This document shows, piece by piece, positions 9,335-31,640 of a stretch of 44,372 bases of DNA. A model generated the notes under the pieces. That model made no database searches, had not been told where the DNA came from, and saw only the letters and a list, made by a program, of their open reading frames with translations. Source of the DNA: Sedimentisphaerales bacterium. Its GTDB lineage: Bacteria > Planctomycetota > Phycisphaerae > Sedimentisphaerales > Anaerobacaceae. The translations under genes were made by a program, and so were the position numbers. The stretch lies in contig JANQFY010000178.1 in the NCBI GenBank assembly GCA_028277585.1, positions 1 through 44,372 on the forward strand, read 5' to 3'. Each line of letters starts with the position of its first letter. Position 1 is the first letter of the stretch.

Positions 9335-12300
9335 GTGAAGGAATCGACGAGGCATACGGCTTGCAGGAACCTCTGCAAGTTTCTGACAATACTGGCAATC
9401 ACCTCCATGGCGCCGGCTTGGGGGCCTCAGCGCGTCGCCGCTGCGACGCGCCCAACGCGAACCCTTTTGTCCGCGTCAATCCAGGAAGCCCTCGCTCAGT
9501 TCAATCGCGGCGCGGCGCTGCTGGAACAGTATCGCTACGCCGACGCGGCTGAGGAATTCGAGAAAGTGGTCGCCTCGGCGCCGCAGTGGAAGGCGGCCCG
9601 CTTCAATCTCGCCCTGGCGTACCTGAACATGCAGGAAGACGCCGGCGCCGAAGAGAACCTGCGGAAGGCTCAGGAGGCCTTTGAGTCTATCCTGAAAGGA
9701 AATCCAGACCATCTTCCCAGCCGATTCTGCCTCGGTCTGCTCCACCAGCACGCCGGCGACAACGCCCGGGCAATGGAGTGCTTCAGCACCGTTCATCAGG
9801 CCGACCCCAACGATCCCCATGTCGCCTACAAGTACGCCGAGACCCTGATCAATCTGGATAAGAAGGAGCAGGCGATCAAGGTGCTGGAAGCCATCGTCGC
9901 GACCGACCCGGGCTTCGTTTCGGCGACCTATCGCCTGGCGACCCTCTATCAGCGCAGCAAGCGGCGCGAAGAGGCCAAGGCGCTGTTCATGCGTTTCCGC
10001 GAACTCAAGAGCGTCGAACTGACCGGCGGCACGTTTACGGTTCTCAACAGCTACGGAACCGTGGGAAAGTACTACGTCGCCCTGGGCGCGGACGACCTTC
10101 CGCTGCGTCCGCCCAAGCCGATCCAGCAGCGCGTGCTGTTCTCGCCGGAGTTCGAGCGATTCAGCGAACCGCTATCGCCCTGGAACGGCAAGGGCGTCGA
10201 TGTGAAACTGCCCGGCGTCGCGGCCGGGGACATCGACAACGATGGGGACATCGATCTCTGTCTGACCGGGCTGGGCGATAACGGCGGCGCCGCGATTTGG
10301 CTCAACGATGGAGCCGGGGCGTTCTCCAAAGGCCAGTCCCTGACCTGCGGTGGGATTTGCCCCACCCTGGGCGACGTGGACAACGACGGCGATCTCGATA
10401 TCTGGCTCGGCCGCGCCGGGCGCGATCTATACTTCGCCAATGACAGCAAGGGAACGCTCAAAGAAACGGCTCTGGAAGGGCTGGTCAGCGAGGACACGGC
10501 GACTCAGAGCGCCCGCCTGCTGGACATCGACAGCGATGGGGATCTCGATCTCCAATCCCTTCACCTGGCGAAGGGTTCAATCCCCGCTGGAGAGACATCC
10601 AAAACGCAAGCGAGCAGCCTGTACAACAACAACCGCGACGGCTCCTTCGACGACATCGCCGAGAAACTTGGCCTGGCGTTCGATTCGGCGGCTGTCGCGA
10701 CGACGATCTACGACGACTTCGACAACGACCGTGACCTGGACCTGATCGTCTTTCCTCAGGACGGAGCCCCGATCGGCTGGGTCAACGATCGCGCTTGGCG
10801 CCACCACCTCCAGTACCCCGACCGACTGGGCCTGGCGGACCTGGACAACGTGCTCGGCGCCACCTCGGGCGACCCGGACGGCGATGGGGACCGCGATCTG
10901 CTGGTGTTCAGCCGTGACGCCGTCCATCTGTACATCAATATTGGAGGTTTTCGCTTCGAACGGCACAGCGATTTCACTGACCAGTGCGGCCGCGCCGGCG
11001 CCTCCGGGGGGCAGTTCGCCGATATGGACAACGACGGCGATCTCGATATCGTCATCGCCGACCGCGCCCGGCGCAACGGCACGCGCGGCCCAGCTCTGCT
11101 CATCAACGAATGGCCGCGCAATCGTTTCCGTGACGCCCGGGAGGCCGATCCGGGGAACCTGTTCGCCGCTCTGAGTTTCGATGGTTACGCCAGTTGCGTC
11201 GTCGCCGATTTCACGGGCGACGGAACGTGTGACGTCTTCCTCGCGCCGGCCGGCGAACGACCGTTCCTGGTGAGGAACGCCACCGAGGGAGGTCATTGGC
11301 TGCAGATAGACCTGCGCGGCACGCGGGGTCAGGACGGCAAATCCCGCTCAAACAACTCGGCGATCGGCGCCCGGGTGGACGTCAAGACAGGAATGATCTC
11401 CCAGCAGCATGTGGTCGGCATCCCCTCAGGGCCCGTCGCCTCCCCGCCGCTGCGCATCCACGCCGGCCTGGGACGCCAGGCGGTCGTCGATTGGCTGCGC
11501 GTCACCTGGCCCGATGCGGTCATGCAAGCGGAACTCGAACTTCCGGCCGATCAGGTGCTGGAGGTCGTAGAGATTCAACGCAAGGTCTCGTCGTGTCCCC
11601 ATCTGTTCGCCTGGAACGGCCAGTTCGTCGAGTTCATCTCCGACTTCGGCGGCATGGGCGGGCTCGGCTATCTGGCCGAACCCGGTGTCTACGCTCAGCC
11701 CGACTCCACCGAATACGTCCCCGTACCCAATCTGCAACCCAAGGATGGTCACTATGTCCTGCACGTAATCGAGCCGATCGAAGAAATCGTCTACCTGGAC
11801 GAAGCCAGACTGATGGCGGTGGACCACCCAATCGGAACGCAGGTCTATCCCAACGAGATGATGGCGGTCAACATCGCGCCGCCGGAATTCGAACTCTTCT
11901 GCGTCCGTGACGCCATCGAGCCGGTGCAGGCGGTGGACCACCGGGATGTGGATGTCACTGAAGCGATCAAGACGGTGGATCGGGTCTACGCCGGACCGGT
12001 CAAGCCGGACCCGCGCTTCGTTGGCTACGCGGAGGAACACGCCGTGGAGCTGGACTTCGGTTCGCGTTTGGGCTCGCTGTCGGCGGACGCCCGTGTGGTC
12101 CTGTTCCTTCACGGCTGGGTGCATTACGGGTATTCCTCGACGAACTTCGCCGCCAGTCAGGCGGGACTGCGTCTGGAGGCGCCCAGCATCTACGCCGAGC
12201 GGGAGGGGCAATGGGTGGAGCTGTTCCACGAAGTCGGCTACCCGGCCGGCGTGCGGCACATCATGACCCTGGAAGTTACGGGCAAGCTGCGTCGTACCGA

Positions 12301-12847
12301 TCGGCGACTCCGCATCGTCACCAACATGGAGCTGTACTGGGATCAGATCTTTCTGGCGCCGATCGTGACGCCGGCGCCGGTTGAAGTGCACTGGATCCCA
12401 CTGGCGGATGCGGACCTGCGTTTCCTCGGTTATCCACGCGAGTACTCGCCCGACGGGAAGAAGCCCAACCTCTACGACTACAGCCAGGTCGACCGGATGT
12501 TGCCCTGGAAAACCATGCGCGGCGCGTACACCCGCTATGGTGATGTCACGCCTTTGCTTCATGAGCCGGACGACTGCTACGTTATTATGGGACCGGGCGA
12601 GGAAGTGACGTTGCGCTACACCGCCGACGGTTTGCCTTCCGTGCCCTCCGGATTCCAGCGATCGTTCATTCTCAAGACCGATAGTTACTGCAAAGATATG
12701 GATCTGTACACGGTTCACCCCGAAACGGTTGAGCCGCTGCCCTACCATGACATGAGCGAATACCCCTACGGATCTGACGAAGGGTATCCTCAGGACGAGA
12801 AACATCAGGAATACCACGAGAAATTCAACACGCGCCACATCCGCTGA
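9335..12847 (+). CDS. 1170-aa fusion protein: N-terminal TPR repeats + FG-GAP/VCBS Ca-binding repeats + UnbV/ASPIC domain (CRTAC1-family architecture) + ~430-aa C-terminal domain of unknown function
   Basis: TPR region aa ~50-230. DxDxDG loops (DIDNDGDIDLCL, DVDNDGDLDIWL, DIDSDGDLDLQ, DMDNDGDLDIVI). ASPIC signature …HWLQIDLRGTRGQDGKSRSNNSAIGARVDVK…. The start codon is uncertain: GTG at 9335, or ATG near 9407. Confidence 0.85.
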   Translation: MKESTRHTACRNLCKFLTILAITSMAPAWGPQRVAAATRPTRTLLSASIQEALAQFNRGAALLEQYRYADAAEEFEKVVASAPQWKAARFNLALAYLNMQEDAGAEENLRKAQEAFESILKGNPDHLPSRFCLGLLHQHAGDNARAMECFSTVHQADPNDPHVAYKYAETLINLDKKEQAIKVLEAIVATDPGFVSATYRLATLYQRSKRREEAKALFMRFRELKSVELTGGTFTVLNSYGTVGKYYVALGADDLPLRPPKPIQQRVLFSPEFERFSEPLSPWNGKGVDVKLPGVAAGDIDNDGDIDLCLTGLGDNGGAAIWLNDGAGAFSKGQSLTCGGICPTLGDVDNDGDLDIWLGRAGRDLYFANDSKGTLKETALEGLVSEDTATQSARLLDIDSDGDLDLQSLHLAKGSIPAGETSKTQASSLYNNNRDGSFDDIAEKLGLAFDSAAVATTIYDDFDNDRDLDLIVFPQDGAPIGWVNDRAWRHHLQYPDRLGLADLDNVLGATSGDPDGDGDRDLLVFSRDAVHLYINIGGFRFERHSDFTDQCGRAGASGGQFADMDNDGDLDIVIADRARRNGTRGPALLINEWPRNRFRDAREADPGNLFAALSFDGYASCVVADFTGDGTCDVFLAPAGERPFLVRNATEGGHWLQIDLRGTRGQDGKSRSNNSAIGARVDVKTGMISQQHVVGIPSGPVASPPLRIHAGLGRQAVVDWLRVTWPDAVMQAELELPADQVLEVVEIQRKVSSCPHLFAWNGQFVEFISDFGGMGGLGYLAEPGVYAQPDSTEYVPVPNLQPKDGHYVLHVIEPIEEIVYLDEARLMAVDHPIGTQVYPNEMMAVNIAPPEFELFCVRDAIEPVQAVDHRDVDVTEAIKTVDRVYAGPVKPDPRFVGYAEEHAVELDFGSRLGSLSADARVVLFLHGWVHYGYSSTNFAASQAGLRLEAPSIYAEREGQWVELFHEVGYPAGVRHIMTLEVTGKLRRTDRRLRIVTNMELYWDQIFLAPIVTPAPVEVHWIPLADADLRFLGYPREYSPDGKKPNLYDYSQVDRMLPWKTMRGAYTRYGDVTPLLHEPDDCYVIMGPGEEVTLRYTADGLPSVPSGFQRSFILKTDSYCKDMDLYTVHPETVEPLPYHDMSEYPYGSDEGYPQDEKHQEYHEKFNTRHIR

Positions 12848-12894
12848 GCCGATCTTAAGGCTACAGCTGATAACCTTGACCGGAGCAGTGGACG

Positions 12895-14370
12895 ATGACA
12901 GGACACCGCGGGTCAAAGAAGAAGGCGACCAGGAGGAGCCGGACACCGGCCCCATCTCCTCGGCGCTCGGCGTCCACCCGAAAGAAGCGAGCGCTCGTAG
13001 CGGCGGCTCTGGGAGTCATTATTGTCGCGGGATTGCTCGTCGCGGCCAAACTCACACGAAACGCGCCTGAAGAACCACCGGCGCCGGTCCAGACAGCGCC
13101 GCCCACCCCCGAGGTCAAGACCAAGGCCCCCACGCCCCCACCGGCCTCACTTGGCCCGGAGGAGAAGACCGCCGCACTGAAGGCCGAGGAGCTTCGTCTG
13201 GCCCAACACCTGGCCACCACGTTCGCCAACAATGAACAACCGCTGGTATTGCTCGGTGACGTTCATCGCAGACGCGGGGCTATCGACCCGGCGGTAGAAG
13301 TCTGGGAGAGGGCCGTCCAGATGAATCCGAAGCGGGCCGACGTCTACGACCGAATCGCTCAGGCCGCCTTTGAAACCGATGGATTCGAAGACGCCATCGC
13401 CCAGTGGCGCAAGGGTCTTGAGGTCGTCCCGACCTTGCACGGGGCCCGCGCGAACATCGCCCGCTGCCTCATGCGTCTGGGTCGCTACGAGGAGAGCATT
13501 CCAGAACTGGAAGAAGAGGCCAAACAGTATCCCGACACGATTCGGAATTACTTCCTGCTCGGTCGCGCTCACCAGCATCTGAGGAATTACGAGGCCTCCA
13601 AGGCGAACTACGAGAAGGCGATCGAACTTCAGCCCGACCATATGAACGCCCACTACGGCCTGTACAACATCTGTGCCCGGCTGAAGCAACAGGAGGCGGC
13701 CAGACACCATCTTGCGGAATTCAAACGCCTCCAGAAACTGGATGAGCAGGCGACACGGAAGCTGGATCAGTCGACGAGCGACCTGGACACATACTCTCGA
13801 GGTTTGGCCCGGCTGTCGTTTGACGCCCACGACCTGTACCGAGCGGCGGGCGGCATAGCACAGGCCGAAGAGCTACTCAAGCAGGCCGTCAATCTCGATC
13901 CTGACAATGCGACGTACCTCGAGCGATTGATGATTCTCTTTCGGAGCCGCAATCAGTTCCGTGAGGCGCTGGCACTGTGTCGCCGTATCGCGAAGATCGA
14001 CCCGACCGACGCGACGTGCCAACTCAACATCGGCATCCTGTCGGCGCGGATGAGGCAGTTCGAAGCTGCAGAGAAGGCCTTCCGTAAGGCCATCGAGATC
14101 GCTCCCGAGCACGATGCGGGGCACCAGGAACTGGCCCGCCTCTACCTGCATATGAGGAAGAACCTCGTCCAGGCGAGAGAACTCGCCCACCAGGCCGTCG
14201 CATTAAGAGCCAATGCTCAGAACTACTACGTGCTGGGGCTGACCTGCCTGGCGAACGAGGACCGAAGCAGCGCCGTGGACCATTTGAGACAGGCAGCCAA
14301 GCTCGACCCGAAGAACGCCAAGTACGCCGAGACCTACCACAGCGTCAGGAAGGAGATGACGTCCAAGTGA
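12895..14370 (+). CDS. Membrane-anchored TPR-repeat protein (basic cytoplasmic N-terminus, single TM helix, periplasmic TPR array)
   Basis: N-terminus MTGHRGSKKKATRRSRTPAPSPRRSASTRKKRALVAAALGVIIVAGLLVAAKL. Multiple TPR-like units (…YFLLGRAHQHLRNYEASKANYEKAIELQPDHMNAHYGLY…). Paralogous to the genes at 16094 and 30338. Confidence 0.8.
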   Translation: MTGHRGSKKKATRRSRTPAPSPRRSASTRKKRALVAAALGVIIVAGLLVAAKLTRNAPEEPPAPVQTAPPTPEVKTKAPTPPPASLGPEEKTAALKAEELRLAQHLATTFANNEQPLVLLGDVHRRRGAIDPAVEVWERAVQMNPKRADVYDRIAQAAFETDGFEDAIAQWRKGLEVVPTLHGARANIARCLMRLGRYEESIPELEEEAKQYPDTIRNYFLLGRAHQHLRNYEASKANYEKAIELQPDHMNAHYGLYNICARLKQQEAARHHLAEFKRLQKLDEQATRKLDQSTSDLDTYSRGLARLSFDAHDLYRAAGGIAQAEELLKQAVNLDPDNATYLERLMILFRSRNQFREALALCRRIAKIDPTDATCQLNIGILSARMRQFEAAEKAFRKAIEIAPEHDAGHQELARLYLHMRKNLVQARELAHQAVALRANAQNYYVLGLTCLANEDRSSAVDHLRQAAKLDPKNAKYAETYHSVRKEMTSK

Positions 14371-14384
14371 TCCGCAGGCCGGGC

Positions 14385-16067
14385 ATGCACAGAATCGAAG
14401 GAAAGCGACGGTGGCGAGCGGCGTTGCTGACGCTGTTCTTCTGCGCGGCCTGCCAAGCCCAATCCCCCAGCACGATCCACTTCGCGGATGTCACGAGGAA
14501 GACGGGTATCACGTTCAGACATCACGATGGTTCGAGCGGCAAGTACTACATCGTCGAGACGGTCTGCGCGGGCCTGGCCCTTTTCGATTACGATCGAGAC
14601 GGCGACATCGACATCTACTTCCTCGACGGGGGAGCTCTGAAAGACGCGAACCTCAAGACGCCTCCCCGCAACGCCCTGTACCGCAACGACGGGAACTGGA
14701 GATTTACCGACGTGACCGATCAAAGCGGCCTGGGAGATCCGGGGCACGCCCTGGGCGTCGCGGTGGGCGATTACGACGGGGACGGCGACCCGGATGTCTA
14801 TATCACGAACTTCGGACCCAACGTTCTGTTCCGCAACAACGGAGACGGGACGTTCACCGACGTGACGAAAGCCGCCGGCGTGGCGGATGGGCACAAGGTC
14901 GGCGCCGGCGCTAACTTTCTCGACATGGACAATGACGGCGACCTGGATCTGTTCTCTTCGAGCTACGTCGATTTCACCTACGAGAACCACGTGACGAACA
15001 CCATCAGCGGCTATCTGATCTATGTCGGACCCAGGTTGTATGAGCCCACGCCCGACAGTTTGTTTCGCAACAATGGAGATGGGACCTTCACCGACGTCAG
15101 CAGCGCCTCAGGGATCGGCGGCAGTAGAGGTACCGGCATGGGCACCGTGTGCGCCGACTACGACAATGACGGCGACACGGATATCTTCGTTGCCAACGAC
15201 CAGATGCAGAACTTCCTTTGGCAAAACGACGGGACGGGGCATTTCGAAGAGATCGGCCTGCTAGCAGGCGTCGGCTACGACATGAACGGCGACGAGATGG
15301 GCAGTATGGGCGTCGGGTGCAGCGACTTCAACCATGACGGTCTGATCGATTTCTATGTGACAGCATATCAACAGCAATTCCCTTCGCTCTACAAGAACCT
15401 CGGTGACGGGATGTTCGAGGACGCGACCTTCCTGACCGGCGCTGGCGCGGGAACCGTTCACACCGTCACCTGGGGCAACGATTTCGCCGACTTCGACAAC
15501 GACGGGGATCGCGACCTCTTCGTCGCCCTGGGCCATCTGGCCGACAACGTCGAGAAGTGGGACCAGCGCAGCTCGTATTTCGCGACCAACCTGCTGTTCA
15601 TGAATACAGGCAAAGAGAAGTTCATCAATGTCTCCGAATCCTCCGGCGATGGGATGAAGGTCAAGCTCAGCAGTCGCGGCGTCGGCTTTGACGATCTTGA
15701 CAATGACGGGGACGTAGACATCGTCGTGCAGAACTCCCGGCGCGAACCGACGCTGTTGCGAAACGACTCGCCCAGGCAGGGCCATTGGCTCCAGATCCGG
15801 CTCAAGGGCGTCAAGGCGAACCGGGATGGCGTGGGGGCCCGGGTGACGGTGGTCGCGGGCGACCTGACCGCCATCGACGAGGTCCACAGCGGGCGGGGTT
15901 ATCAGAGCCACTACGGAACGAGGCTCTATTTCGGTCTGGGCGAGCGTGAGCGTGTCGACCGCCTCGAAGTTCGCTGGCCGGGGGGGCGTACCGACGTCTT
16001 CAAGGATCTCGCCGTCGATCGACTCGTGACCCTGGTCGAGGGCCAATCGCAGGCCGGCTCTCCCTGA
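14385..16067 (+). CDS. CRTAC1-family protein (secreted FG-GAP/VCBS repeat beta-propeller + C-terminal UnbV/ASPIC domain)
   Basis: Signal-like N-terminus (RRWRAALLTLFFCAACQAQS). DxDxDG repeats (DYDRDGDIDIYF, DYDGDGDPDVYI, DMDNDGDLDLF, DYDNDGDTDIFV, DFDNDGDRDLFV, DLDNDGDVDIVV). ASPIC C-terminus (HWLQIRLKG…GYQSHYGTRLYFGLG…). An alternative GTG start at 14367 overlaps the upstream stop (GTGA). Confidence 0.85.
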   Translation: MHRIEGKRRWRAALLTLFFCAACQAQSPSTIHFADVTRKTGITFRHHDGSSGKYYIVETVCAGLALFDYDRDGDIDIYFLDGGALKDANLKTPPRNALYRNDGNWRFTDVTDQSGLGDPGHALGVAVGDYDGDGDPDVYITNFGPNVLFRNNGDGTFTDVTKAAGVADGHKVGAGANFLDMDNDGDLDLFSSSYVDFTYENHVTNTISGYLIYVGPRLYEPTPDSLFRNNGDGTFTDVSSASGIGGSRGTGMGTVCADYDNDGDTDIFVANDQMQNFLWQNDGTGHFEEIGLLAGVGYDMNGDEMGSMGVGCSDFNHDGLIDFYVTAYQQQFPSLYKNLGDGMFEDATFLTGAGAGTVHTVTWGNDFADFDNDGDRDLFVALGHLADNVEKWDQRSSYFATNLLFMNTGKEKFINVSESSGDGMKVKLSSRGVGFDDLDNDGDVDIVVQNSRREPTLLRNDSPRQGHWLQIRLKGVKANRDGVGARVTVVAGDLTAIDEVHSGRGYQSHYGTRLYFGLGERERVDRLEVRWPGGRTDVFKDLAVDRLVTLVEGQSQAGSP

Positions 16068-16093
16068 CGGGCCGGCATTCTGAACGGAGCAGA

Positions 16094-17551
16094 ATGACAA
16101 AGCACAGAAAGCCACCCAAAGGAATGAAGAAGCGGGTCAGGCCTGCTCATTCGAGCCCTCCTCCCGCGACGAGGCACAGGGGGCATCGGCGGTGGGCCGT
16201 CGGGATCATTCTGGCTGTCACCGTGGTTGGAGTGAGCATCATATGGCTGACCGGGGAGGACGCCGAGCCAACCGCGCCCTCATCGCCCGCGGGTGTTCCG
16301 ACTGAACAGCGCCATGTCGTCACCGTTCTGAGTGCGTACGCCGGCCAATCGCCCGAGAATGTGCCGGCCGTCCAAGAGGAGGAATTGGCGCTGGCGGAAG
16401 CCCTGATCCAGGATTTCCCTCAGAGCGATGCGCCGCTGGCGCTGCTGGCGCGCGTCCATCAGTATCGCGGCGACATCACCAAGTCCGAAGCCCTGTGGAA
16501 ACAGGCCGCCGCTCTGAACCCGAAACGCAGCGACTTGTACGAGAGCATCGGCCAGGCCGCTCAGCGAAAGGACGACCCCAACGAGGCGATCGCCTGGTGG
16601 CGCAAGGGTCTGGAGGCGAATCCTCGGGCGCCGGGGCTTCGCTGGCAGATCGCCAAGACCCTTGTTGCCCAAGGACAACTGGATGAAGCGCTGGACCTGC
16701 TCGAAATCGAATGCACGCTTACGCCTACATCCGCGCGGAACTATTATCTGCTGGGTCAGGTCCACCAGAAGAAACGAGCTTACGAGAAGGCCAAGGCCGC
16801 TTACGAGAAGACCATCGAGCTTCAGCCGGACTACTACAATGCCCACTACGGCCTGGGGGTGATCTACACGCGTCTGAAGGACATCGAGAAGGCAAAGGAA
16901 GCCATGGCGCGTTTCCGAGAATTCAAGGCTCAGGCCGATAGCTCGGAAGACCAGCGCATCATAATCGACGAGATCCCGCACGCCCGCCATCGAGCGGCGA
17001 CGTTCTATGTGAGAGCTTACAGCCTGTTCGACCCCAAACGTGAGCCGGCGATCGGCCAGAGGCTGCTCGAAAGAGCCCTGGAATTGGACCCGAACGACGC
17101 CCACACGTGGGAGAAGATGGCGGGTCACTACTTCGTGGGGAATCAGCATCAGAAGGCCCTGGAGCTGTTCCGCAGAGTCACCGAACTGGACCCGAGCAAC
17201 CCACTGCCCCACATCAACATCGGAAAGCTGTACGCCCTGATGAACCAGCCCGGGCGGGCCGGGAGCAGCCTGCGGCAGACCGTCGCACGCTTCCCCGACT
17301 CACACCTGGCGCTGGCCGAACTGGCGCGGTTCTATCTCCGCGTTCAGACCAATCTGCCCGAAGCCCGAACCTTGATGCAGAAAGCCACCGCTCTGAATCC
17401 CACTGCCGACTACTACTTTCTCCTGACCTGGGCGTGCGACATCAACGGAGATCTTGACGGCGCCCTGGACGCCATCCAGAAAGCGATTGCGCTGGACCCG
17501 AGGAACGGAACGTATAGGAGCGCCTATGAACGCATTCAAGCCAAGCGCTAG
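16094..17551 (+). CDS. Membrane-anchored TPR-repeat protein (paralog of 12895-14370)
   Basis: Basic N-terminus followed by a TM helix (…RRWAVGIILAVTVVGVSIIWL). TPR units. Same overall layout as the other TPR partners. Confidence 0.8.
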   Translation: MTKHRKPPKGMKKRVRPAHSSPPPATRHRGHRRWAVGIILAVTVVGVSIIWLTGEDAEPTAPSSPAGVPTEQRHVVTVLSAYAGQSPENVPAVQEEELALAEALIQDFPQSDAPLALLARVHQYRGDITKSEALWKQAAALNPKRSDLYESIGQAAQRKDDPNEAIAWWRKGLEANPRAPGLRWQIAKTLVAQGQLDEALDLLEIECTLTPTSARNYYLLGQVHQKKRAYEKAKAAYEKTIELQPDYYNAHYGLGVIYTRLKDIEKAKEAMARFREFKAQADSSEDQRIIIDEIPHARHRAATFYVRAYSLFDPKREPAIGQRLLERALELDPNDAHTWEKMAGHYFVGNQHQKALELFRRVTELDPSNPLPHINIGKLYALMNQPGRAGSSLRQTVARFPDSHLALAELARFYLRVQTNLPEARTLMQKATALNPTADYYFLLTWACDINGDLDGALDAIQKAIALDPRNGTYRSAYERIQAKR

Positions 17552-19202
17552 AACGATACGATATCTGGCCGCTTTGATTCTCTGCTCGTGCCTGACCGCC
17601 GGCGCCGCGGCGCCGTTTCGTTTTGTCGACGTCACCGCTCAAACGAAGATCGCCTTCAAGCATGATATCGGATTTTCGGGGACGTATCATATCGCTGAGA
17701 CCGTCTGTGCGGGATTGGCCTCGTTCGACTACGACAATGACGGCGATATCGACATCTACTTTCTCAACAGCGCGTCCCCCAAAGGATCACCGTTGCGAAA
17801 CGCCCTCTACCGCAATGACGGCGATTGGCGCTTCACTGATGTGACGAGCGCCGCGGGTGTGGGGGATACAGGATTCGGCCTGGGCGTCGCGGTCGCTGAC
17901 TACGACAACGACGGCGATCAGGACCTCTATCTCAACAATCATGGGCCCAACGTGCTCTACCGCAACAATGGCGATGGGACTTTCACCGATGTCACGAGCG
18001 CCGCCGGGGTGGGCAATGGCGACCAGGTGGGCGCCGGCGCGAACTTCCTCGATATCGAAGGCGACGGCGACGTGGACCTCTACGTATCCAACTACGTCAA
18101 GTGCCCCGACGTAGAGTCGTTTCAGAGCACTCGCGCCGGCCACCCGGCGTACTTGGGCCCCGCGGCTGAGATCTACGAGAACACACGCGACACCCTGTAC
18201 CGCAACAATGGCGACGGGACTTTCACCGATGTCACTGGCCCATCGGGCATCGGCGTACACAAGGGAGCCGGGATGGGAACCATCTGCGGCGACATCGACA
18301 ACGACCACGACACCGACATCCTCGTCGCCAACGACATGACGGGCAACTTCCTCTTCCTCAACGATGGAAAGGGCCGGTTCGAAGAGGCGGGCCTGATCGC
18401 CGCGATTGCCTACGATCAGCACGGAGAGGAACAGGGCAGCATGGGTGTCGAACTGGGCGACTACGACAACGACGGCAAACTGGATCTCTACGTCACCGCC
18501 TACCAGGACCAATGGGGCCCTCTCTACCGCAACCTCGGCGACGGCTTCTTCGAGGACGTCACCATGGAAACAGGCGCCGGGGCCGGGACGGTCGCGAGCG
18601 TCACCTGGGGCAGCGGCCTGGTCGATTTTGACCGAGACGGGCTGCGCGATCTGTTCATCGCGTGCGGTCACCTTCAGCCCAACGTCGAATCGTACGACGA
18701 CCGCACGACGTACAATCAGTTCAACAAGCTTTATCGCAACAATGGGAAGGGCAAACTCGTCGACGTTTCGTCGCAGAGCGGGCCGGGGCTGCAGGTCAAA
18801 CGGTGTAGTCGCGGCACCGCATTCGAGGACTTCGACAATGACGGCGACGTAGATATCGCCATCCTCAATTCGGGTCAAGAACCAACAATCCTCAGGAACG
18901 ATTCACCCAACCAGGGTCATTGGCTGCAGATTCGCCTGCGCGGGACCAAGACCAACCGCGACGGCGTAGGGGCCCGCGTCAAGGTCGTCGCCGGAGATCT
19001 GACGCTGATCGACGAAGTCCACAGCGGGCGCGGCTACCAGAGCCACCACGGAACCCGGCTCTATTTCGGCTTGGGTGGACGCGAGCAGATCGATCGGGTT
19101 GAAGTGCGTTGGATTGGCGGTGGAACGGACGTATTCAAGGACGTCAAGATCGACAGCCTTGTGACACTCGTTGAAGGTCAATCGCAGCCAAGCACTCAGT
19201 GA
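17526..19202 (+). CDS. CRTAC1-family protein (FG-GAP/VCBS + UnbV/ASPIC), secreted
   Basis: Start chosen at MNAFKPSARTIRYLAALILCSCLTAGAAA (signal peptide), which overlaps the last 26 nt of the upstream TPR gene. DxDxDG repeats. ASPIC tail nearly identical to those at 14385 and 31641. Confidence 0.85.
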   Translation: MNAFKPSARTIRYLAALILCSCLTAGAAAPFRFVDVTAQTKIAFKHDIGFSGTYHIAETVCAGLASFDYDNDGDIDIYFLNSASPKGSPLRNALYRNDGDWRFTDVTSAAGVGDTGFGLGVAVADYDNDGDQDLYLNNHGPNVLYRNNGDGTFTDVTSAAGVGNGDQVGAGANFLDIEGDGDVDLYVSNYVKCPDVESFQSTRAGHPAYLGPAAEIYENTRDTLYRNNGDGTFTDVTGPSGIGVHKGAGMGTICGDIDNDHDTDILVANDMTGNFLFLNDGKGRFEEAGLIAAIAYDQHGEEQGSMGVELGDYDNDGKLDLYVTAYQDQWGPLYRNLGDGFFEDVTMETGAGAGTVASVTWGSGLVDFDRDGLRDLFIACGHLQPNVESYDDRTTYNQFNKLYRNNGKGKLVDVSSQSGPGLQVKRCSRGTAFEDFDNDGDVDIAILNSGQEPTILRNDSPNQGHWLQIRLRGTKTNRDGVGARVKVVAGDLTLIDEVHSGRGYQSHHGTRLYFGLGGREQIDRVEVRWIGGGTDVFKDVKIDSLVTLVEGQSQPSTQ

Positions 19203-20344
19203 GGCGCCGAACAGCCGATTGCAGCAACGGATTCAATACTCCCGTCCCGGATGGTCGCGAGCTGAACGGCTCGGGTATTGGCGCCGACGGCATTCCAACG
19301 AATCTGCCCGGCAACGCCTTGGAAGGGAGTCCCATCCCGAACCGCATCCCGGATGCGCGTCCGGTCCGATCCCGCCTTGCGAATCGCACTGGTCAGCAGT
19401 GTCAGGGCGTCGTACGTGTGAGCGGCGGCATAGTCCGGCTGACGGTTGAAGCGTTTGTTGAACTCCTCGGCAAACGCATGGAACCTCGGAGACATGACCA
19501 GAGGATGGGGGAACACAACTCCCTCAGCCGCAGCGCCGGCTTGTTTGAGAAAGGTTCGCCTGCCCATCTGGGGTCCGCCGAAGACCGCGCGGGCGTATCC
19601 TCGGCCGCGCAATTCTCGGAGCACCGCGGCGCCGCCTCGGGGATCAGCAATCAGAACCACCGCCTGCGGATCGGCTTGCAGAATTCCATCGACAATGGGT
19701 GGAACGCCCGACGCTTCCGTATTGCACTGGAGATGAAAAGCCGGGACGATCCGACACGCCTTGAACGCCTTCCGCAATTCCACGGCAAATACCTGGGAGT
19801 CATGGTCCACCGCCGAGACCACCATCAGGGATTGGCGCTCAGAGCGTAACGCTATCGCTTTGGCCAAAACCATCGCCTGCACATCGTCCAGGGGAACGCA
19901 CGAGAACATCCAGGGGACGCCCGCCATGTTAACCGATTTGTCGCTGGCGACGGGACTGATCAGAGTCAGTCGAGCCTTGGCGACCACCTGCTCGGCCAGA
20001 TGGGTTGAGGCGCCGTCGATCCCCCCAACGATCGCCCGGACCTTCTCGACATACGCCATCCGCGCCACGTCCGCGACGCCCGAGCCCCAGGGACTCTCCG
20101 ACCAACTCGTGACCAGGCGAAAAGGAGCACCCTCGCAGCCCCCTGCGCGATTGGCTTGTTCAAGGGCCATCGAGGCGGCGCACCAGAGGTCCCCTCCGTC
20201 GGAATGGGTGGACGAGGCCGGCCCGAAGTAGCCAATGAGGACCTCCCCGACCTTGGAATCAGAAGCATCGAGCGCGGCGAGGCGTCCGACTGCCAACGCA
20301 ACGGCGAGCAGCGCGACACCAGCGGCATGGCGGAAACGGCGCAT
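19196..20344 (-). CDS. Type-1 periplasmic binding protein (Peripla_BP_6, LivK-like ABC substrate-binding protein), with no cognate permease in the window
   Basis: Signal peptide MRRFRHAAGVALLAVALAVG. PBP1 fold motifs (…LIGYFGP…, AIVGGIDGASTH…). The start at 20344 replaces the longer six-frame ORF. The 3' end overlaps the convergent gene ending at 19202 by 7 nt. Confidence 0.75.
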   Translation of the reverse strand: MRRFRHAAGVALLAVALAVGRLAALDASDSKVGEVLIGYFGPASSTHSDGGDLWCAASMALEQANRAGGCEGAPFRLVTSWSESPWGSGVADVARMAYVEKVRAIVGGIDGASTHLAEQVVAKARLTLISPVASDKSVNMAGVPWMFSCVPLDDVQAMVLAKAIALRSERQSLMVVSAVDHDSQVFAVELRKAFKACRIVPAFHLQCNTEASGVPPIVDGILQADPQAVVLIADPRGGAAVLRELRGRGYARAVFGGPQMGRRTFLKQAGAAAEGVVFPHPLVMSPRFHAFAEEFNKRFNRQPDYAAAHTYDALTLLTSAIRKAGSDRTRIRDAVRDGTPFQGVAGQIRWNAVGANTRAVQLATIRDGSIESVAAIGCSAPH

Positions 20345-20351
20345 GGGTAGC

Positions 20352-21839
20352 TCAACTGCGTCCGGCGTCCGAGTGTTTCTCCTCAGTTGCCGAGACATCG
20401 ACTCGGTCGCGGGCCGGCACATAGTCGCGCGGAATTCCCAGATCCTCGCGCGAGCGGTAGGTCCACTCTCCGTCGCGACGCTCGACCAGGAAGACATCGC
20501 CCACGGTGTCGAGCGCAGCGCTGAGGGTAATCTCGCCAGTCACGCCCTCCCACGACTGGGCGCGATGCGCCAGGACGTCGCGGATCTTCGCCCGGTTCAG
20601 GCCGGCGACCTGGACCGCCCAGAGCAACATGTTCATTCCATCGTAGGCATGGGCGGCGTACGTCTCAGCTTCTTCGCCGAAACGTTTCTCGAAGCGCTCC
20701 TGGAAAGCGACGTAGTGCGAATCGTCACGCGTCGGGTCCCAGGGGGAGGTGCAGATCACACCCTCGGCGTTCGACCCGGCTAACTCGAGGAACTCGTCCG
20801 ACAGACAACGGTCGCACGCGAAATACGGATGCTCCATGTCCATCTCGCGCATCTGGTTCAGGATCAGGGCGCCTTCCGAGGCGTTTCCCCAGTGTATGAT
20901 GGCCTGAACGTTCGCCTCTTTGAGCCGTTCGAGTTGCAGAGAGAAATCCTCAATGCCGAGTTTGTAGGCCATTTCCAGGATGATGGGCCGGCCGAGACGA
21001 CGACTCCCATCGCGGATCTCGCGGACTCCGAAGCGGCCGTACCGATTGCTCGCCCGCATAATGCCGACCCGTTCGAGCCCCAGCTTGCGATACAGGTAGT
21101 CGACCAGCAAATACCCCTGCTGGCGATCGTCGCTGATACAGCGGAAGACCCATGGAATGTTAGTCTCGATGAAGGTCGGATCGGTGTCGCCCGAGTTCAT
21201 CATGGGGACTTCGGCCTTCAGCGCTACGCGGATGGCGATATGGCTGTTGGCCCCATCGATGGTCCCCAGGATAGCCCAGACCTTGTCTTTGTACGCCATC
21301 TTGACGATTTCATTGCCCGAGGCGCCCCAGAGCCCGTTGTCGTTGCTGACAATCAGTTCGAAGGGGATGTTCCGCTTGTGATAGCCGCCTTGTGCGTTGG
21401 CCTCTTCGATGGCGAGGCGCGAGCCCTGCAACATCTTGATGCCGAGCGGCTCTTCATGGCTCTTGCCCCCGGTCGCGACGGAGACCGTCGACATGATGGG
21501 CCCGATGAAGCCGATCTTAACCGTGTTGACATCCTCCGGCTCGGGGATCGCCCGCCCCGGCCCGGTGTACTCCATCTGCGTCAGGAAGTGCTCCTTGTAC
21601 GGCTCGACATGACGAAACGGCTTGACGTCATGCGTAGTCTCGGCGTACTTGGCGTCTTCCTTCAGCGCCAGGTCGGGGACCTCGTAGGCGCTGACGGAAT
21701 TGATCTTCTCGACGACCTCGCTGGTGTGCGCGTCGACTTCCACCGGGCCCGATGTGTCGCGACGGGCCTGTTCCGGCCCACTGCACGAAGCCAGAGACAC
21801 CGAGATAACCAGACTGATCAGAACGATCCAACGCTTCAT
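20352..21839 (-). CDS. Type-1 periplasmic binding protein lipoprotein (LivK-like), second tandem copy
   Basis: Lipoprotein signal MKRWIVLISLVISVSLASCSG. Motifs VKIGFIGPIMS…, AILGTIDGANSHIA. Only 7 nt separate it from the next substrate-binding-protein gene. Confidence 0.8.
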   Translation of the reverse strand: MKRWIVLISLVISVSLASCSGPEQARRDTSGPVEVDAHTSEVVEKINSVSAYEVPDLALKEDAKYAETTHDVKPFRHVEPYKEHFLTQMEYTGPGRAIPEPEDVNTVKIGFIGPIMSTVSVATGGKSHEEPLGIKMLQGSRLAIEEANAQGGYHKRNIPFELIVSNDNGLWGASGNEIVKMAYKDKVWAILGTIDGANSHIAIRVALKAEVPMMNSGDTDPTFIETNIPWVFRCISDDRQQGYLLVDYLYRKLGLERVGIMRASNRYGRFGVREIRDGSRRLGRPIILEMAYKLGIEDFSLQLERLKEANVQAIIHWGNASEGALILNQMREMDMEHPYFACDRCLSDEFLELAGSNAEGVICTSPWDPTRDDSHYVAFQERFEKRFGEEAETYAAHAYDGMNMLLWAVQVAGLNRAKIRDVLAHRAQSWEGVTGEITLSAALDTVGDVFLVERRDGEWTYRSREDLGIPRDYVPARDRVDVSATEEKHSDAGRS

Positions 21840-21901
21840 AGCAAACCTCCTCGCCCAGGGAGCATCGTCAACATGCTCTGGCGAAATCATGTCATGCGCT
21901 G

Positions 21902-23080
21902 TCACTTAGACGTCCCCGTTTGCACTACTTTCTGCGCCGCCGGCGCGTGCAAGGGGCGCTCCTTCAGCCCCGGATAGTATCCGGCGCCCTTGCCCCGGGC
22001 CAGTCCCTTGGATGTCCCTACCCAGACGTCGTCGCCATCGATCTCCACCCACAGGGCGTAGTTATGCGGAATCCCGCGCGGGCTGCGGACCGTCTCCAAC
22101 ACCTCTTTGTTGCGAGTGACCACAGCGACACCCTCGTGCGTGTTGGGGTCCATTGTATAGGTAATCCAGGTGTCCGTCGAGAAATCCGTTACGACGCCGA
22201 CGCCTTTGTCGGTGGCGTACCACCCCTCGTCGGCGCTGCGGCCCTTGACGGCGTTGCCAAAATCGCTGGGCAAACCGGTCTCGTGGGCGTAGTAGCCCCG
22301 CCAGTAGCGCCCGTCGTAGCGGCACATGCCGAAATAGCTAGAGACCCAAAGCACGTCGTCCACGTGGCTGACGCCGGTGGTGATCACGTGGACGATGCCG
22401 TCGTCGCGGTACAGATCGATCTCCATCTCGCCGTCCGGATCAAGGTAGTCCTTCCAATTCTCCGTCTTGATGTCGAACTCCAGGATGCCGCTGCCCCAGA
22501 CGCTGAGAAAGACCTTGCCGTCGCTCTGGCAGACGCCGTAGTTCCAGATCTCTTCCATCGGGGCGTTCTTCTCGGTGTAGATCGTCCATTCGCCTGTGAC
22601 GGTGTTGAAACGACTGGCCCCAGCGGTGGTCGCCACCCAGACGTTGTCATTCTCGACCGCGACGCCGTAGACGACGTCGTTGACCAGGCCGCTGTTGAGC
22701 TGGTGCCAGTGGTCGACCCGCCCGCCGCTGAAGCGGGCCAGGCCGCCGCCGAAGAGGCCAACCCAGAGTTCGCCCGTCTTCGGGTTCATATCGAGCGCCG
22801 AGACCACCCGCCAGGGAAGCCCTTCCGCTTCGGTCCAGCTCTTGACCTTGCCCGTGCGCTTGTCGATGCAGGCCAGCCCGTTCTCTGTACCGACCCAGAC
22901 CTTCGTCTCGTCGGCCTCGACGGCGAAGACATGGTCGTTGGGAAGACCGTCCTTGACCGTGAAGTGCTGCCAATCCGTGTAGACATACGGCAAGCGGGCG
23001 GCGCCTGCCGCCGACGCGAAGACCATCGACAGGGCCAATACGATCAGCCCCTTAGAAATCCACTGATGAATCATACACAC
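21902..23080 (-). CDS. Secreted beta-propeller repeat protein (two-component-regulator-propeller / Reg_prop-like repeats)
   Basis: Signal peptide (…GLIVLALSMVFASAAGAA). Repeated ~45-aa units with the pattern …W(V/I)GT.nGLa/…VWVATtaGasrf…, as seen in Reg_prop/Y_Y_Y-type propellers. Confidence 0.65.
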   Translation of the reverse strand: MCMIHQWISKGLIVLALSMVFASAAGAARLPYVYTDWQHFTVKDGLPNDHVFAVEADETKVWVGTENGLACIDKRTGKVKSWTEAEGLPWRVVSALDMNPKTGELWVGLFGGGLARFSGGRVDHWHQLNSGLVNDVVYGVAVENDNVWVATTAGASRFNTVTGEWTIYTEKNAPMEEIWNYGVCQSDGKVFLSVWGSGILEFDIKTENWKDYLDPDGEMEIDLYRDDGIVHVITTGVSHVDDVLWVSSYFGMCRYDGRYWRGYYAHETGLPSDFGNAVKGRSADEGWYATDKGVGVVTDFSTDTWITYTMDPNTHEGVAVVTRNKEVLETVRSPRGIPHNYALWVEIDGDDVWVGTSKGLARGKGAGYYPGLKERPLHAPAAQKVVQTGTSK

Positions 23081-23100
23081 CTCGTTCTCCTGGAAACCCG

Positions 23101-25959
23101 CTACAACGTTTTGATGTACTCGATCAGGTCGTTGAGCTGGTCTTTGGTCATATCGTTGGTGACCCCGTGTTGATCGTCCGGGTTGTAAACCGTCCAGATC
23201 TCCTCGAGCGTCTCGGCGATGCCGTTATGCAGATACGGCGACGAATCGTAAATGTTGTTCAAATGCGGCGTATCGAATTCCGATTCGCGATCCCACTTCA
23301 GTTTCGTCCCAATGTCGTGGCGCTGGCGATCCGTATAGAGCGGCGGTGCGTGACATGTCACACAGCGATTGCCCTTGGGGATCAGGCGACCGTCATTGGT
23401 CATCGTCCGCTCGAACATCGCTTTGCCGCGACGCTGGGCGTCGGTCAGTTCGGCGCCGAGGGGTCGATAGCGATTCGGCGGTCGTGGAATCGTGCAGATG
23501 TAGTTGTCGAGTGCCGAGAGTTGCTCGTCGGTAAATGGCTGAATCCGCGTGAAAAAGACCGCCAGGCGCGGGCCGCACTGGCGTTGCAGACTCGGGTTGG
23601 TCCCCTCCCACTTGAACGGGGCGGTGTCAAGGATGCCCCGCAGCGTACGGTTGTCGACCGGGCTGATTCCAATGCCGTCCGGCTCGATGTCGTAGGTCAG
23701 GCCGTCGACGTGCCCATCAGGATGACACGAGTGACAGGAGAACTGCCGATGGAACGTGATGTTGGCGCTGTGGAAGACGCGCTCGCCGTACCGGATCTTC
23801 GTGATCTCTTTCGGACCGCCCAGGTCAATGCGACCGGCCGCTTCCATCCGCTCGAGATCGATCGCCGTCAGCGAATCGTCCAGGGCGTTGGCGACGAAGG
23901 CGCTCTTGCCGTCCGGCGTCACGATGATCCCGCGCGGGCTGTATTCAACGGGGATGTGTTTGACCACGAACTCCGTCGGCTTGCCCAAGTGGTTCGGAAA
24001 GACGTGCTCACGATCGTGGTCCGACGCCGCCTCGAGCATCGCGATCATCTTTTCCAGATCGATCACGGCTATGCGGTTGGATCCCGAACTGCTCGCCAGC
24101 GCCCACCGGCCATTGGGCGTAATGACCACATCGGCCGGGTCGGGAAACGACATGCCCGGCTCATCGAGCAGGACCTGATCGACGCGGCCATCTTTCCAGA
24201 TAATGCCCAGCCCATTCGTGATCGTCCAGCCCTGCAACAACCGCGTCATCGGCACAAGGTTCTTCGTACGGTTCAGAGTCGTCAGGGCGAACTTCCCGCT
24301 GGGGTGCCAATCCACGCCCTGCATGAGATTGGCGGCCGGCACCACCCGGCGGTCGTCCACGATGTTGCGCTTCGCATTGATGATGGTGACTTCCGACATA
24401 GACGGCGTGCGGAAAGGAACGAAGCGCGACAGGTTGTTCGTGACGTAGATCTCCGAGCCGTCCGGCGCCAGGGACAACGACCAGGGATTGCGGCTGGCCG
24501 CCAGTCGCTTGATCTCTTTCTGCGTTGCCAGTTCGATGATGGAGATACTGTCCGAAGAGGTGTTGAGTACGTACAGATACGTGCCCGAGGGATCGACCAG
24601 AACCCCGTGCGGCTCATCGCCCACGGGAATCGTCCCGATCTCCTTGCGCGAGATAACGTCCACGACCGAGACCGTATCGTCCAGACGATTGCTGACATAC
24701 GCCCTTTGCCCATCGGGGCTGAACGCCACGTCGGTCGGATGGCGGCCCACCGCGATCTCCGCGATCTTGCGCCGCGACTGAGCATCGACAACGATCACCG
24801 TGTGCGACGCCTCGCAGGCCACATAGAGTTCCTTGCCCCCCGGGAGAATCGCCAGATTCAGGGGTGTCTTGTAGTGCGGCGCTTCGGCGACCTGTTCGAT
24901 CTTGGTCGGATGAGCGATCTTCGCAAGCGCCTTCTCATAATCGAATGGCTTGTCGTGCGCGTTCTCGTGACAACGCAGGCATGTCTGTTCGTTCACCTCT
25001 TTGAGCCCGGCCGTGTGCGCAGCGCGCGGATCGGTCATGCGTGCCTCCTCGGCATACGCGCTGCCCGCGCCGTGACAAGCCTCGCAGCCGACTCCTTCGT
25101 AGACCGAGTACAGATCCCGTTGCCCCCCGGCCGGGTCGTGATGCGCCGTGGAATGGCATTTCAAGCAAGCCGCACTCCTCTGTGGGGGCTCCTTGAGTCC
25201 CTTCTCCTTGGCGATCTCGTACGCCTTCTCGGTCGTCAAGACGGCAAACGCACGGCTGTGAGCGCTCATGCGCCACTTGCTGAACTGGTAACCCATCGAT
25301 GGGCCCTTGTGGCAGGTCCCACATTTGAAGACCCCGATATGGGCCGGTGCGTTCCCTTGCGAATCACCAGCCGGCAGTGCGACCGGGTCGCTGTATTTCC
25401 ATTCCTCCGGCGTCGGGTGCGCTATCCGCCGGAGCCCCTTGAGGACGTCCAGGGTGGGCAAGCTATGGACCGCCACGTGGGAACCTTTGACCTGGTGACA
25501 GACCATGCAGTCCCGCGTGGTGGGCATGTTGAGCCCGGCCGCCATCGCCTTCCCGCGATCCCGCATGACCGATTCGGTCATGTACTCGCTACCCGGACCG
25601 TGACAGTGCTCGCACTGGACCCCGTCCTCGACAAAAAATGTGTCGTCCTTCTCCCAATCCTCGGCGTGCGCTCCGGTTGCATGACAGCCCAGGCACATCA
25701 CGCTCTCCTGGGGCTCCTGGGGAATACCGCTCAGTTGCGCGATCGCCTTGGCTCCGGGCTGGGCGAGGACAGCGTAAGCGCGAGCGTGCTTGGATTGCTG
25801 CCAGATGCTGCACTGATGGCCCATGCCCTCCCCGTCATGACAGGCGGCGCAGGCTTTGACGCCGACATAAACCGGTTGCCTCTGAGCCGTGCCATAGGCC
25901 AAGACGGCTGAGGGGAGGATCAGAACAATCGATAGGACACAAAGAAGATAGCGAGACAT
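23101..25959 (-). CDS. 952-aa deca-haem c-type cytochrome: duplicated tetrahaem (c554-like) module + YVTN-type beta-propeller + C-terminal di-haem cytochrome c peroxidase/MauG-like domain
   Basis: Signal peptide. CxxCH motifs: CAACH, CLGCH, CEHCH, CMVCH, CGTCH, CLKCH, CEACH, CLRCH (N-terminal 360 aa), then CHSCH and CVTCH in the C-terminal 300 aa. The CCP-family motif FDTPHLNNIY (cf. F-x-x-PSLRN) is present. The middle region has YVTN-like 40-residue repeats (…AYVSNRLDDTVSVVDV…, …LYVLNTSSDSISIIEL…). Confidence 0.85.
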   Translation of the reverse strand: MSRYLLCVLSIVLILPSAVLAYGTAQRQPVYVGVKACAACHDGEGMGHQCSIWQQSKHARAYAVLAQPGAKAIAQLSGIPQEPQESVMCLGCHATGAHAEDWEKDDTFFVEDGVQCEHCHGPGSEYMTESVMRDRGKAMAAGLNMPTTRDCMVCHQVKGSHVAVHSLPTLDVLKGLRRIAHPTPEEWKYSDPVALPAGDSQGNAPAHIGVFKCGTCHKGPSMGYQFSKWRMSAHSRAFAVLTTEKAYEIAKEKGLKEPPQRSAACLKCHSTAHHDPAGGQRDLYSVYEGVGCEACHGAGSAYAEEARMTDPRAAHTAGLKEVNEQTCLRCHENAHDKPFDYEKALAKIAHPTKIEQVAEAPHYKTPLNLAILPGGKELYVACEASHTVIVVDAQSRRKIAEIAVGRHPTDVAFSPDGQRAYVSNRLDDTVSVVDVISRKEIGTIPVGDEPHGVLVDPSGTYLYVLNTSSDSISIIELATQKEIKRLAASRNPWSLSLAPDGSEIYVTNNLSRFVPFRTPSMSEVTIINAKRNIVDDRRVVPAANLMQGVDWHPSGKFALTTLNRTKNLVPMTRLLQGWTITNGLGIIWKDGRVDQVLLDEPGMSFPDPADVVITPNGRWALASSSGSNRIAVIDLEKMIAMLEAASDHDREHVFPNHLGKPTEFVVKHIPVEYSPRGIIVTPDGKSAFVANALDDSLTAIDLERMEAAGRIDLGGPKEITKIRYGERVFHSANITFHRQFSCHSCHPDGHVDGLTYDIEPDGIGISPVDNRTLRGILDTAPFKWEGTNPSLQRQCGPRLAVFFTRIQPFTDEQLSALDNYICTIPRPPNRYRPLGAELTDAQRRGKAMFERTMTNDGRLIPKGNRCVTCHAPPLYTDRQRHDIGTKLKWDRESEFDTPHLNNIYDSSPYLHNGIAETLEEIWTVYNPDDQHGVTNDMTKDQLNDLIEYIKTL

Positions 25960-25963
25960 CCTC

Positions 25964-27601: not shown

Positions 27602-27606
27602 GCCTA

Positions 27607-29595: not shown

Positions 29596-30337
29596 CTCCC
29601 TATGTGATTGGGCGCTCCAGGCGCCGCGAAACGTTGCCGCGTCTTCCATCGCTTTCCGCCAAACGAAAGGATTCGCGCCGCCGTCTCAGAACGGACGGGG
29701 GCTCGAATCAGTTGTGTCGATCGTACAGACCTCGACGAGGGCAGCTTGGTGGAGCGATAATCGTGTCGAGTCAAATGCCCAAGTCAACAGTCACACTCAG
29801 TCGCGCAGAGGCCGTATGAAACAGGGTTGCCAAGCTACGGCAGTCTGCTGCACATCAATGTTCTTGGATCGCGCCTCGGCTGGAACCCGTCCCCTGAGGA
29901 CTTGCCGACACACGTTTGCGGACACTCGCCCATGGCGTGTCCCTTCACGATTCGTCGTGGCTATGCCACGCAATTCTCATTCTAGTAAATACGTCTATTC
30001 GACGCAATAACTTGAAAAAAGACTGCCGCCTGATCCCTTCTTACCGGGCGTCGCCGGCAAGAGGATGAGGGCCTATCCACACGGTTGAGCTGCTGCAATT
30101 CCGGCGACCTGGGAGATTTCCGTGGGAAAAAGCCCAGTATCACCCCTGATAAAGCCGACAATGTACTCGGGACGACGAATGTCCCCGAACCGGGACGGTC
30201 TGGCCTCGAGCCGAGGCCGTCGGGCGTCACCGGTGTACCGCTTGCGTCAGCATGGTCATCTTGATAGGATGAGACCAGCAGGGCCGATAAGCAGCGGGAT
30301 TCGGCGCAGGGCTGGTATTCTCCCGACTGGACTTGTG

Positions 30338-31624: not shown

Positions 31625-31640
31625 TAGGACCTTGAGGACC

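Follow-up and report, generated by a model that had tools for sequence, protein, structure and literature searches.

Anciently diverged TPR–CRTAC1 gene modules flanking a hydrazine synthase-like operon in a Sedimentisphaerales bacterium

Proteins of the CRTAC1 family combine an FG-GAP beta-propeller with a UnbV/ASPIC domain. UnbV is a conserved secreted protein of enediyne gene cassettes, but to our knowledge the family has no known function in bacteria, and we are not aware of any report of a dedicated partner of vertebrate CRTAC1 made of tetratricopeptide repeats (TPRs). Here we analyse a 44,372-nucleotide stretch of DNA from a Sedimentisphaerales bacterium (Planctomycetota; assembly GCA_028277585.1, contig JANQFY010000178.1; the whole stretch is referred to as the window), in which genes for CRTAC1-family proteins (C) repeatedly follow genes for TPR proteins (T), on both sides of an operon resembling that for hydrazine synthase (HZS). 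We hold with moderate confidence that the T–C pairs are anciently diverged two-gene modules in which T, facing the periplasm, tethers its cognate propeller to the membrane or serves as a scaffold for it, the modules probably being accessory to the neighbouring haem system. Whilst the component families are known, we found no description of TPR–CRTAC1 pairing, or of the association of T–C modules with the HZS-like operon, in the literature searched, and both are apparently undescribed.

The closest described relative of the operon is the clade I HZS-like cluster reported by Hagglund et al. (2025; PMC12758564), in which a CRTAC1-family gene lies between the alpha and beta-gamma genes and two binding-protein genes are also present. 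HZS catalytic residues are not conserved in this cluster (PMC12758564). TPR genes, additional CRTAC1 modules and long-form genes of the type designated F1 below go unmentioned beside the cluster in that description (PMC12758564). In the present window, the genes that concern us first are the following:

F1, 9335..12847, plus strand: long-form CRTAC1-family protein, 1170 aa; first gene of the apparent plus-strand operon
T2, 12895..14370, plus strand: predicted bitopic TPR protein, 491 aa; assigned from Pfam TPR matches, inspection of the N-terminus and its own specific family
C2, 14367..16067, plus strand: predicted secreted CRTAC1-family propeller (Pfam); start at GTG 14367 or ATG 14385
T3, 16094..17551, plus strand: predicted bitopic TPR protein, 485 aa; paralogue of T2 with 36% amino acid identity
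C3, 17526..19202 (longer open reading frame from 17454), plus strand: predicted secreted CRTAC1-family propeller; start at ATG 17526
T4, 30338..31624 (longer open reading frame from 30122), plus strand: TPR partner of C4, 428 aa; basic N-terminus and a hydrophobic segment ending AHA-Q
C4, 31632..33326, plus strand: predicted secreted CRTAC1-family propeller; start at TTG 31632, ATG 31641 or ATG 31659

An earlier note on this DNA had read the first five genes as three consecutive copies of one module, the first of them fused into a single gene. All the open reading frames (ORFs) that it named are present where it placed them, and the further pair that it saw at 30338-33326 (T4–C4) is a true paralogous module, but only two tandem T–C pairs, T2–C2 and T3–C3, are found, F1 belonging to a separate family. 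With gaps of just 47 nt between F1 and T2 and 26 nt between C2 and T3, F1-T2-C2-T3-C3 looks like a single operon headed by F1. Scans of the window for promoters and terminators remained at chance level and gave nothing firm on operon limits.

Membership of the C proteins in the CRTAC1 family is well supported, as the earlier note had proposed. In C2, C3, C4 and C5 (the last a homologue encoded within the HZS-like operon), Pfam identifies FG-GAP_3 (E 1e-47 to 1e-53, in 5-7 stretches per protein) and UnbV_ASPIC (E 1e-17 to 1e-24), the latter profile being matched full length (1-67 of 68) in these four proteins and in F1. Each of the four has 5-7 Dx[DN]xDG motifs by regular expression, predicted to be Ca-binding loops, and inspection reveals Sec-type signal peptides with hydrophobic cores and AxA-like sites, in line with the prediction that these proteins are secreted. 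All these features are shared with vertebrate CRTAC1/ASPIC (PDB 9etn), and by sequence C2 matches the solved CRTAC1 structure 9etn_A across residues 63-546 (E 3.7e-16). Unlike their vertebrate counterpart, however, the genes described here occur in T–C modules or, in the case of F1, as a fusion with TPRs and lectin-like domains. Integrin-alpha-type FG-GAP propellers and the fungal FG-GAP lectins PVL and AAL have the same propeller fold with Ca loops, a likeness at the level of fold only (13-17% identity), but possess neither the ASPIC domain nor the TPR partner seen with C and F1. C2-like proteins are very numerous, with 7972 matches at E<=1e-30. Some proteins in the C2 search list are named 'enediyne biosynthesis protein E4' by JGI; the window contains no polyketide synthase (PKS) genes.

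The T proteins consist of dense TPR arrays (Pfam E 1e-32 to 1e-40) behind a distinctive N-terminus. In T2, a basic tail with 13 K/R residues is followed by a transmembrane (TM) segment at residues 33-51, a Pro/Thr-rich stalk and approximately ten TPRs, and T2 and T3 both have 12-13 K/R and no D/E ahead of a strongly hydrophobic 19-residue segment and then a Pro/Thr-rich stretch. The proposal that each T protein has a basic N-terminus, one TM helix and a TPR array thus stands in full for T2 and T3, whereas the hydrophobic segment of T4 is weaker and, ending in AHA-Q, may be a cleavable signal. The same architecture recurs in homologues at other loci (12-15 K/R, no acidic residues, a hydrophobic segment of ~19 residues and a PT-rich stretch), and the family has a signature after the stalk, ..AALKxEELRLAExL..FPxSExPLVLxG. 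When the family profile was used for searching, about 80 of the best 150 matches (all at E<=5e-123) were single-stretch, full-length matches to proteins of ~300-550 aa, the remainder being giant generic TPR proteins. An exact-sequence look-up of T2 returned no record.

On the basis of the positive-inside rule, T is predicted to adopt an N-in topology with its TPR array in the periplasm. We also weighed and discarded a signalling or anti-sigma role for T, because its cytoplasmic part comprises just ~30 basic residues. The nearest described counterparts are the membrane- or lipid-anchored periplasmic TPR scaffolds, such as PilW/PilF, LapB, BepA and MamA; T is likewise an all-TPR solenoid predicted to lie at the membrane, and MamA, PilW and PrsT are among its weak NCBIfam and fold matches, all of them far under the family cutoffs. 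What sets T apart from these known scaffolds is its own post-stalk signature and its family-specific C partner.

The T-then-C order is conserved in other genomes. Among 80 loci anchored on the neighbouring beta-gamma gene there are 26 T-like ORFs, and a C gene lies immediately downstream of 22 of them. A T-centred metagenome scan, which used a T2-clade alignment and is thus biased towards T2/T4-like genes, yielded 12 specific loci with the order F1 > T > C (> T > C) wherever the contig continues; all the extended ones run F1, T, C and then, convergently, the two binding-protein genes, PROP and BG of the HZS-like operon. In a C-centred sample, a TPR gene is found directly upstream of all five C2-like genes, and T–C follows F1 in both members of an F1-centred sample. 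Variants on the pairing include a 1001-aa ORF in which C is fused N-terminally to T (L017, 9871-12873, minus strand) and two metagenome-scan loci in which a further TPR ORF, ~820 aa long, separates T from C (L095, 6269-8740; L097, 11510-14026).

Further clues to a functional partnership come from the junctions between the two genes. The T2 stop codon TGA (14368-14370) overlaps the GTG at 14367, one of two possible starts for C2 (the other being ATG 14385), and the C3 start codon ATG 17526, which sits 5 nt past TAGGAG, lies within T3, giving a 26-nt overlap (17526-17551). These two cases support the translational coupling proposed in the earlier note. The third, a 7-nt gap between T4 and C4, is dependent on the choice of start: it requires TTG 31632, but ATG 31641 or ATG 31659 is at least as likely and would give 16-34 nt, with GGAGA lying 4 nt ahead of ATG 31659, which also gives the cleanest signal peptide of the candidate starts. 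In public gene calls, nine of 14 T/C junctions overlap (by 1, 1, 4, 4, 4, 4, 26, 26 and 35 nt), whilst gaps of 1, 29, 40, 43 and 91 nt separate the genes at the remaining ones.

How old are the copies? At the protein level, C2, C3 and C4 are 62-64% identical to one another and T2, T3 and T4 just 32-36%, with nucleotide identity between copies of 46-67% and third-position identity of 36-50%. Synonymous divergence (dS, NG86) is saturated, at 1.3-1.9 for C pairs and 1.6-2.4 for T pairs; non-synonymous divergence (dN, NG86) is ~0.29-0.30 for C2-C4, indicating purifying selection on C, and 0.67-0.78 for T. The ASPIC ends, which had been described as near-identical in protein and about 80% identical in DNA, are the best conserved part of C but reach only 75-85% and 68-78%, respectively. 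Blockwise comparison of the paralogues shows 300-nt repeat blocks to be 66-76% identical, and no conversion tract or long near-identical tract between paralogues was seen, no 300-nt block exceeding 76%.

In neighbour-joining (NJ) trees, C2, C3 and C4 fall into three separate clades, each with genes from other metagenome-assembled genomes (MAGs), other orders included. T2, T3 and T4 likewise each cluster with genes of other MAGs, and the T tree is congruent with the C tree: T2-type genes lie upstream of C2-type genes, and the same is true of T3/C3 and T4/C4. Distances between T proteins and those between their partner C proteins are correlated (r=0.68 for 20 pairs, with 1 of 2000 Mantel permutations reaching this value), and the same F1-T2-C2-T3-C3 layout is found in a relative at ~72% identity that has been independently assembled several times. 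The alignments suggested by the earlier note therefore show the three T–C pairs to be related but anciently diverged, and its proposal of recent duplication with ongoing recombination does not survive. Given these orthologues of C2, C3 and C4 in other MAGs and the agreement of the T and C trees, the sequences indicate that the modules were duplicated as units long ago and have been maintained. Taken together, conserved adjacency, junction overlaps, correlated distances and congruent trees support the view that T is a dedicated partner of the propeller.

F1 requires separate consideration. Far from being a fused T–C copy, as first proposed, its sequence places it in a separate, well conserved and self-contained family of proteins of ~1160 aa with TPRs, a CRTAC1-like propeller, ASPIC and a CBM32/discoidin-like C-terminus. 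The N-terminus is signal-peptide-like, without the basic tail and anchor of T, and is followed by ~5 TPRs (residues 47-230), a degenerate FG-GAP propeller with ASPIC (269-750; in Pfam, FG-GAP_3 at E 1.8e-27 in 3 stretches and ASPIC at 676-742) and a beta-rich C-terminal region (751-1170). The CRTAC1 part is 27-28% identical to C2-C5. The ~420 additional residues beyond ASPIC have no Pfam match even at E<=10; by fold, this region is CBM32/discoidin-like, resembling lectin-like beta-sandwiches. There are at least 860 homologues, of which the best 120 are 57-84% identical over 96-100% coverage and 1126-1263 aa in length; relatives, which are named 'CRTAC1 family' or 'VCBS repeat-containing', are found in Planctomycetota, and the family alignment has many invariant residues in the C-terminal region. 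The AlphaFold2 model (pLDDT 78.6, pTM 0.73) has murine CRTAC1 as its best neighbour in the PDB (9etn_A, E 3.6e-19, TM(target) 0.68), with FG-GAP lectins and CBM32-like domains among other fold neighbours. The idea that a frameshift or an assembly error had joined T to C to produce F1 was rejected, given that F1 has its own full-length family and only generic likeness to T. As a natural fusion of TPRs to a CRTAC1-like propeller, F1 lends weak 'Rosetta-stone' support to the idea that the two folds work together.

Between the T3–C3 and T4–C4 modules lies a six-gene operon on the minus strand (19196-29649), listed here in the order of transcription:

ALPHA, 27607..29649, minus strand: distant HZS alpha homologue with 2 CxxCH motifs; start codon uncertain
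C5, 25964..27601, minus strand: CRTAC1-family protein within the HZS-like operon, no TPR partner; 38-42% identical to C2-C4
BG, 23101..25959, minus strand: homologue of the HZS beta-gamma fusion with 10 CxxCH motifs; 8 of the haem motifs lie in two c554 domains, the other parts being a propeller and a dihaem C-terminus
PROP, 21902..23080, minus strand: predicted secreted beta-propeller of 392 aa; weak Reg_prop match
PBPb, 20352..21905, minus strand: Peripla_BP_6 substrate-binding protein, probably a lipoprotein (LASC lipobox); likely start 21839
PBPa, 19196..20497, minus strand: Peripla_BP_6 substrate-binding protein, last gene of the operon; true start probably near 20344

The CRTAC1 gene previously described as solo is thus C5, internal to an operon that the earlier note had not recognised. 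Against the NCBIfam equivalogs, ALPHA scores 236 bits (cutoff 800) and BG 202 bits (beta-gamma equivalog, cutoff 1250), and with both below cutoff, their sequences mark them as homologues and not as HZS itself. On gene order and motifs, the operon can be assigned to the clade I HZS-like cluster (PMC12758564): the order alpha, CRTAC1 FG-GAP, beta-gamma and two substrate-binding proteins is matched, as are the 8+2 haem motifs in BG and two in ALPHA. Within the limits of each contig, all 80 loci fetched have the six genes in identical order, and these loci span Phycisphaerae/Sedimentisphaerales, Pirellulales, Thermoguttaceae, Acidobacteriota and one Verrucomicrobia MAG. The two binding proteins are 'orphan', ABC permease and ATPase genes being absent nearby.

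Do the modules accompany the operon elsewhere? Of the planctomycete-type loci that extend 4 kb or more past the final operon gene (n=34), 23 have F1-like, T–C or C genes convergent to the operon, F1-like genes occurring in 15 and T–C in 15. The outer flanks differ among lineages, and the inner order varies (F1>T>C, T>C>F1 or T>C>T>C). For the window itself, the best matches are Sedimentisphaerales and Phycisphaerales MAGs, with flanks shared with relatives.

A number of other features are seen in the window and in related loci. The sole Rfam match in the window is a tRNA gene at 42018-42087 (plus strand), with no match in the divergent spacer at 29650-30337. At 2193-5627 (minus strand) is a gene for a 1144-aa HEAT-repeat and FG-GAP protein, another FG-GAP architecture but without ASPIC; it adjoins a GFO/IDH/MocA oxidoreductase gene and a GH4 gene in a flank common only to the close relatives L001, L088 and L106. 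A CN_hydrolase (nitrilase/amidase superfamily) gene is located at 40614-41453 (plus strand), ~7 kb from the C4 module, and at another locus (L105, 17136-18155) a CN_hydrolase gene lies directly between the final T–C module and the binding-protein genes; this proximity may be coincidence or a hint of nitrogen-compound chemistry. On one metagenome contig (L104, 1153-3444, minus strand), a gene for an MtrC/MtrF-like multihaem cytochrome is found just upstream of an F1-T-C-T-C operon.

These observations suggest the following model. T would be a bitopic inner-membrane protein whose short cytoplasmic tail is very basic, with a single TM helix and a Pro/Thr-rich stalk carrying about ten TPRs in the periplasm, whilst C would be exported via Sec as a Ca-binding FG-GAP beta-propeller with ASPIC. 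Overlap or abutment of the C cistron with the T stop codon may lead to roughly equimolar synthesis, after which the TPR array of T would capture the cognate C protein and hold it at the periplasmic face of the membrane; physical binding of C by T is inferred, and each T appears to have co-diverged with its own C. An anchor or scaffold is favoured over a cytoplasmic chaperone or export factor because the predicted TPR array shares the periplasm with the exported C protein. In F1, the TPRs, CRTAC1-like propeller, ASPIC and lectin-like beta-sandwiches would all belong to a single secreted chain. Finally, the modules would probably serve as accessory ligand-binding or scaffolding units of the periplasmic HZS-like system. 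This is the weakest step, and on the genomic evidence the modules may plausibly be linked in function to the haem operon without this being obligatory.

Several points weigh against this model. As regards T–C partnership, the non-synonymous rate of T is more than twice that of C, the NJ trees are without support values, and the F1 TPR part shows generic TPR similarity only to T, making the fusion argument weak. The pairing has exceptions: a C-C tandem without T (L019, 17120-19658), a T-T tandem without C (L042, 9790-12426), a lone C (L103) and C5, which is never found with a T partner. As regards the haem operon, convergent neighbours of the kind described above accompany just two of ten acidobacterial operons, and three of the five C-centred T–C modules, all C2-clade and 70-74% identical to C2, lie away from it. 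In a Phycisphaerales genome (L106, CP070782.1, 16543-20229), F1-T3-C3 and both binding-protein genes are kept but alpha, C5 and beta-gamma are absent at the site and the propeller gene is truncated, matching residues 175-378 only, a state that may mark the breakpoint of a deletion or rearrangement, or reflect mis-assembly. Nor can shared gene order in related MAGs count as independent evidence.

The alternative that survives best, though in our judgement somewhat unlikely, is that the T–C and F1 proteins are glycan- or envelope-binding (lectin- or adhesin-like) proteins of the periplasm or cell surface, unrelated to the haem operon and next to it through inherited synteny. The fold similarity on which such a view can draw lies at ~10% identity, however, and the enrichment in planctomycete loci (23/34) persists despite differing gene orders and outer flanks, suggesting more than frozen synteny; the operon itself, moreover, always includes a CRTAC1 gene.

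Less probable still, we believe, is a role for T as a transient assembly or export factor for C, required if the propeller is to fold, load Ca or leave the periplasm, and not as a stable anchor. TPR proteins are often assembly factors, chaperone-client pairs too are typically translated in a coupled manner, C carries a signal peptide of its own and T has weak NCBIfam matches to the PilW, LapB, BepA and SycD classes, but the latter are all far under cutoff. That C5 and some C genes occur without T implies that the fold does not generally need it, and one-to-one co-divergence fits a stable, specific partner at least equally well.

We regard it as highly improbable that T and C are co-transcribed but functionally independent. 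The exceptions to pairing and the very different evolutionary rates of the two proteins might be explained in this way, but the T-then-C order, the stop/start overlaps, co-duplication and correlated divergence, seen across many lineages and genomic contexts, would not. Almost no credence can be given to a recent tandem amplification, homogenised by recombination or gene conversion and perhaps mis-assembled in copy number, since the presence of two adjacent pairs and a third nearby, the greater conservation of the ASPIC ends, a copy number of 1 to 3 between F1 and the binding-protein genes among relatives and a lineage-specific duplicate pair in L002 are outweighed by saturated dS and low third-position identity, the lack of any long near-identical tract, the dissimilarity of the T copies, the three C clades with orthologues in other MAGs and the shared layout in independent assemblies of relatives, whilst copies so different cannot collapse during assembly.

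On these comparisons, the repeated genes in this window are old and functionally maintained paralogues; neither a young and unstable amplification nor a fault of assembly accounts for them. Planctomycetota encode CRTAC1-family proteins in very large numbers, many of them paired with what appears to be a dedicated, co-evolving, membrane-anchored TPR partner, so that what had been annotated only loosely as a 'repeat protein' becomes part of a two-component unit that can be tested. The modules also add components unconsidered in the 2025 description of the HZS-like operon, itself the nearest relative of the key anammox enzyme found outside anammox. Going further, though we think it rather unlikely, it can be conjectured that CRTAC1-type propellers are integral to an uncharacterised periplasmic multihaem system related to hydrazine synthase, in which they would occur free (C5), TPR-tethered (T–C) or fused (F1), with the two orphan binding proteins capturing or presenting substrate, or organising the complex at the membrane. 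If true, this would provide a handle on the ancestral function behind the anammox hydrazine synthase and assign bacterial CRTAC1-family proteins their first biochemical role.

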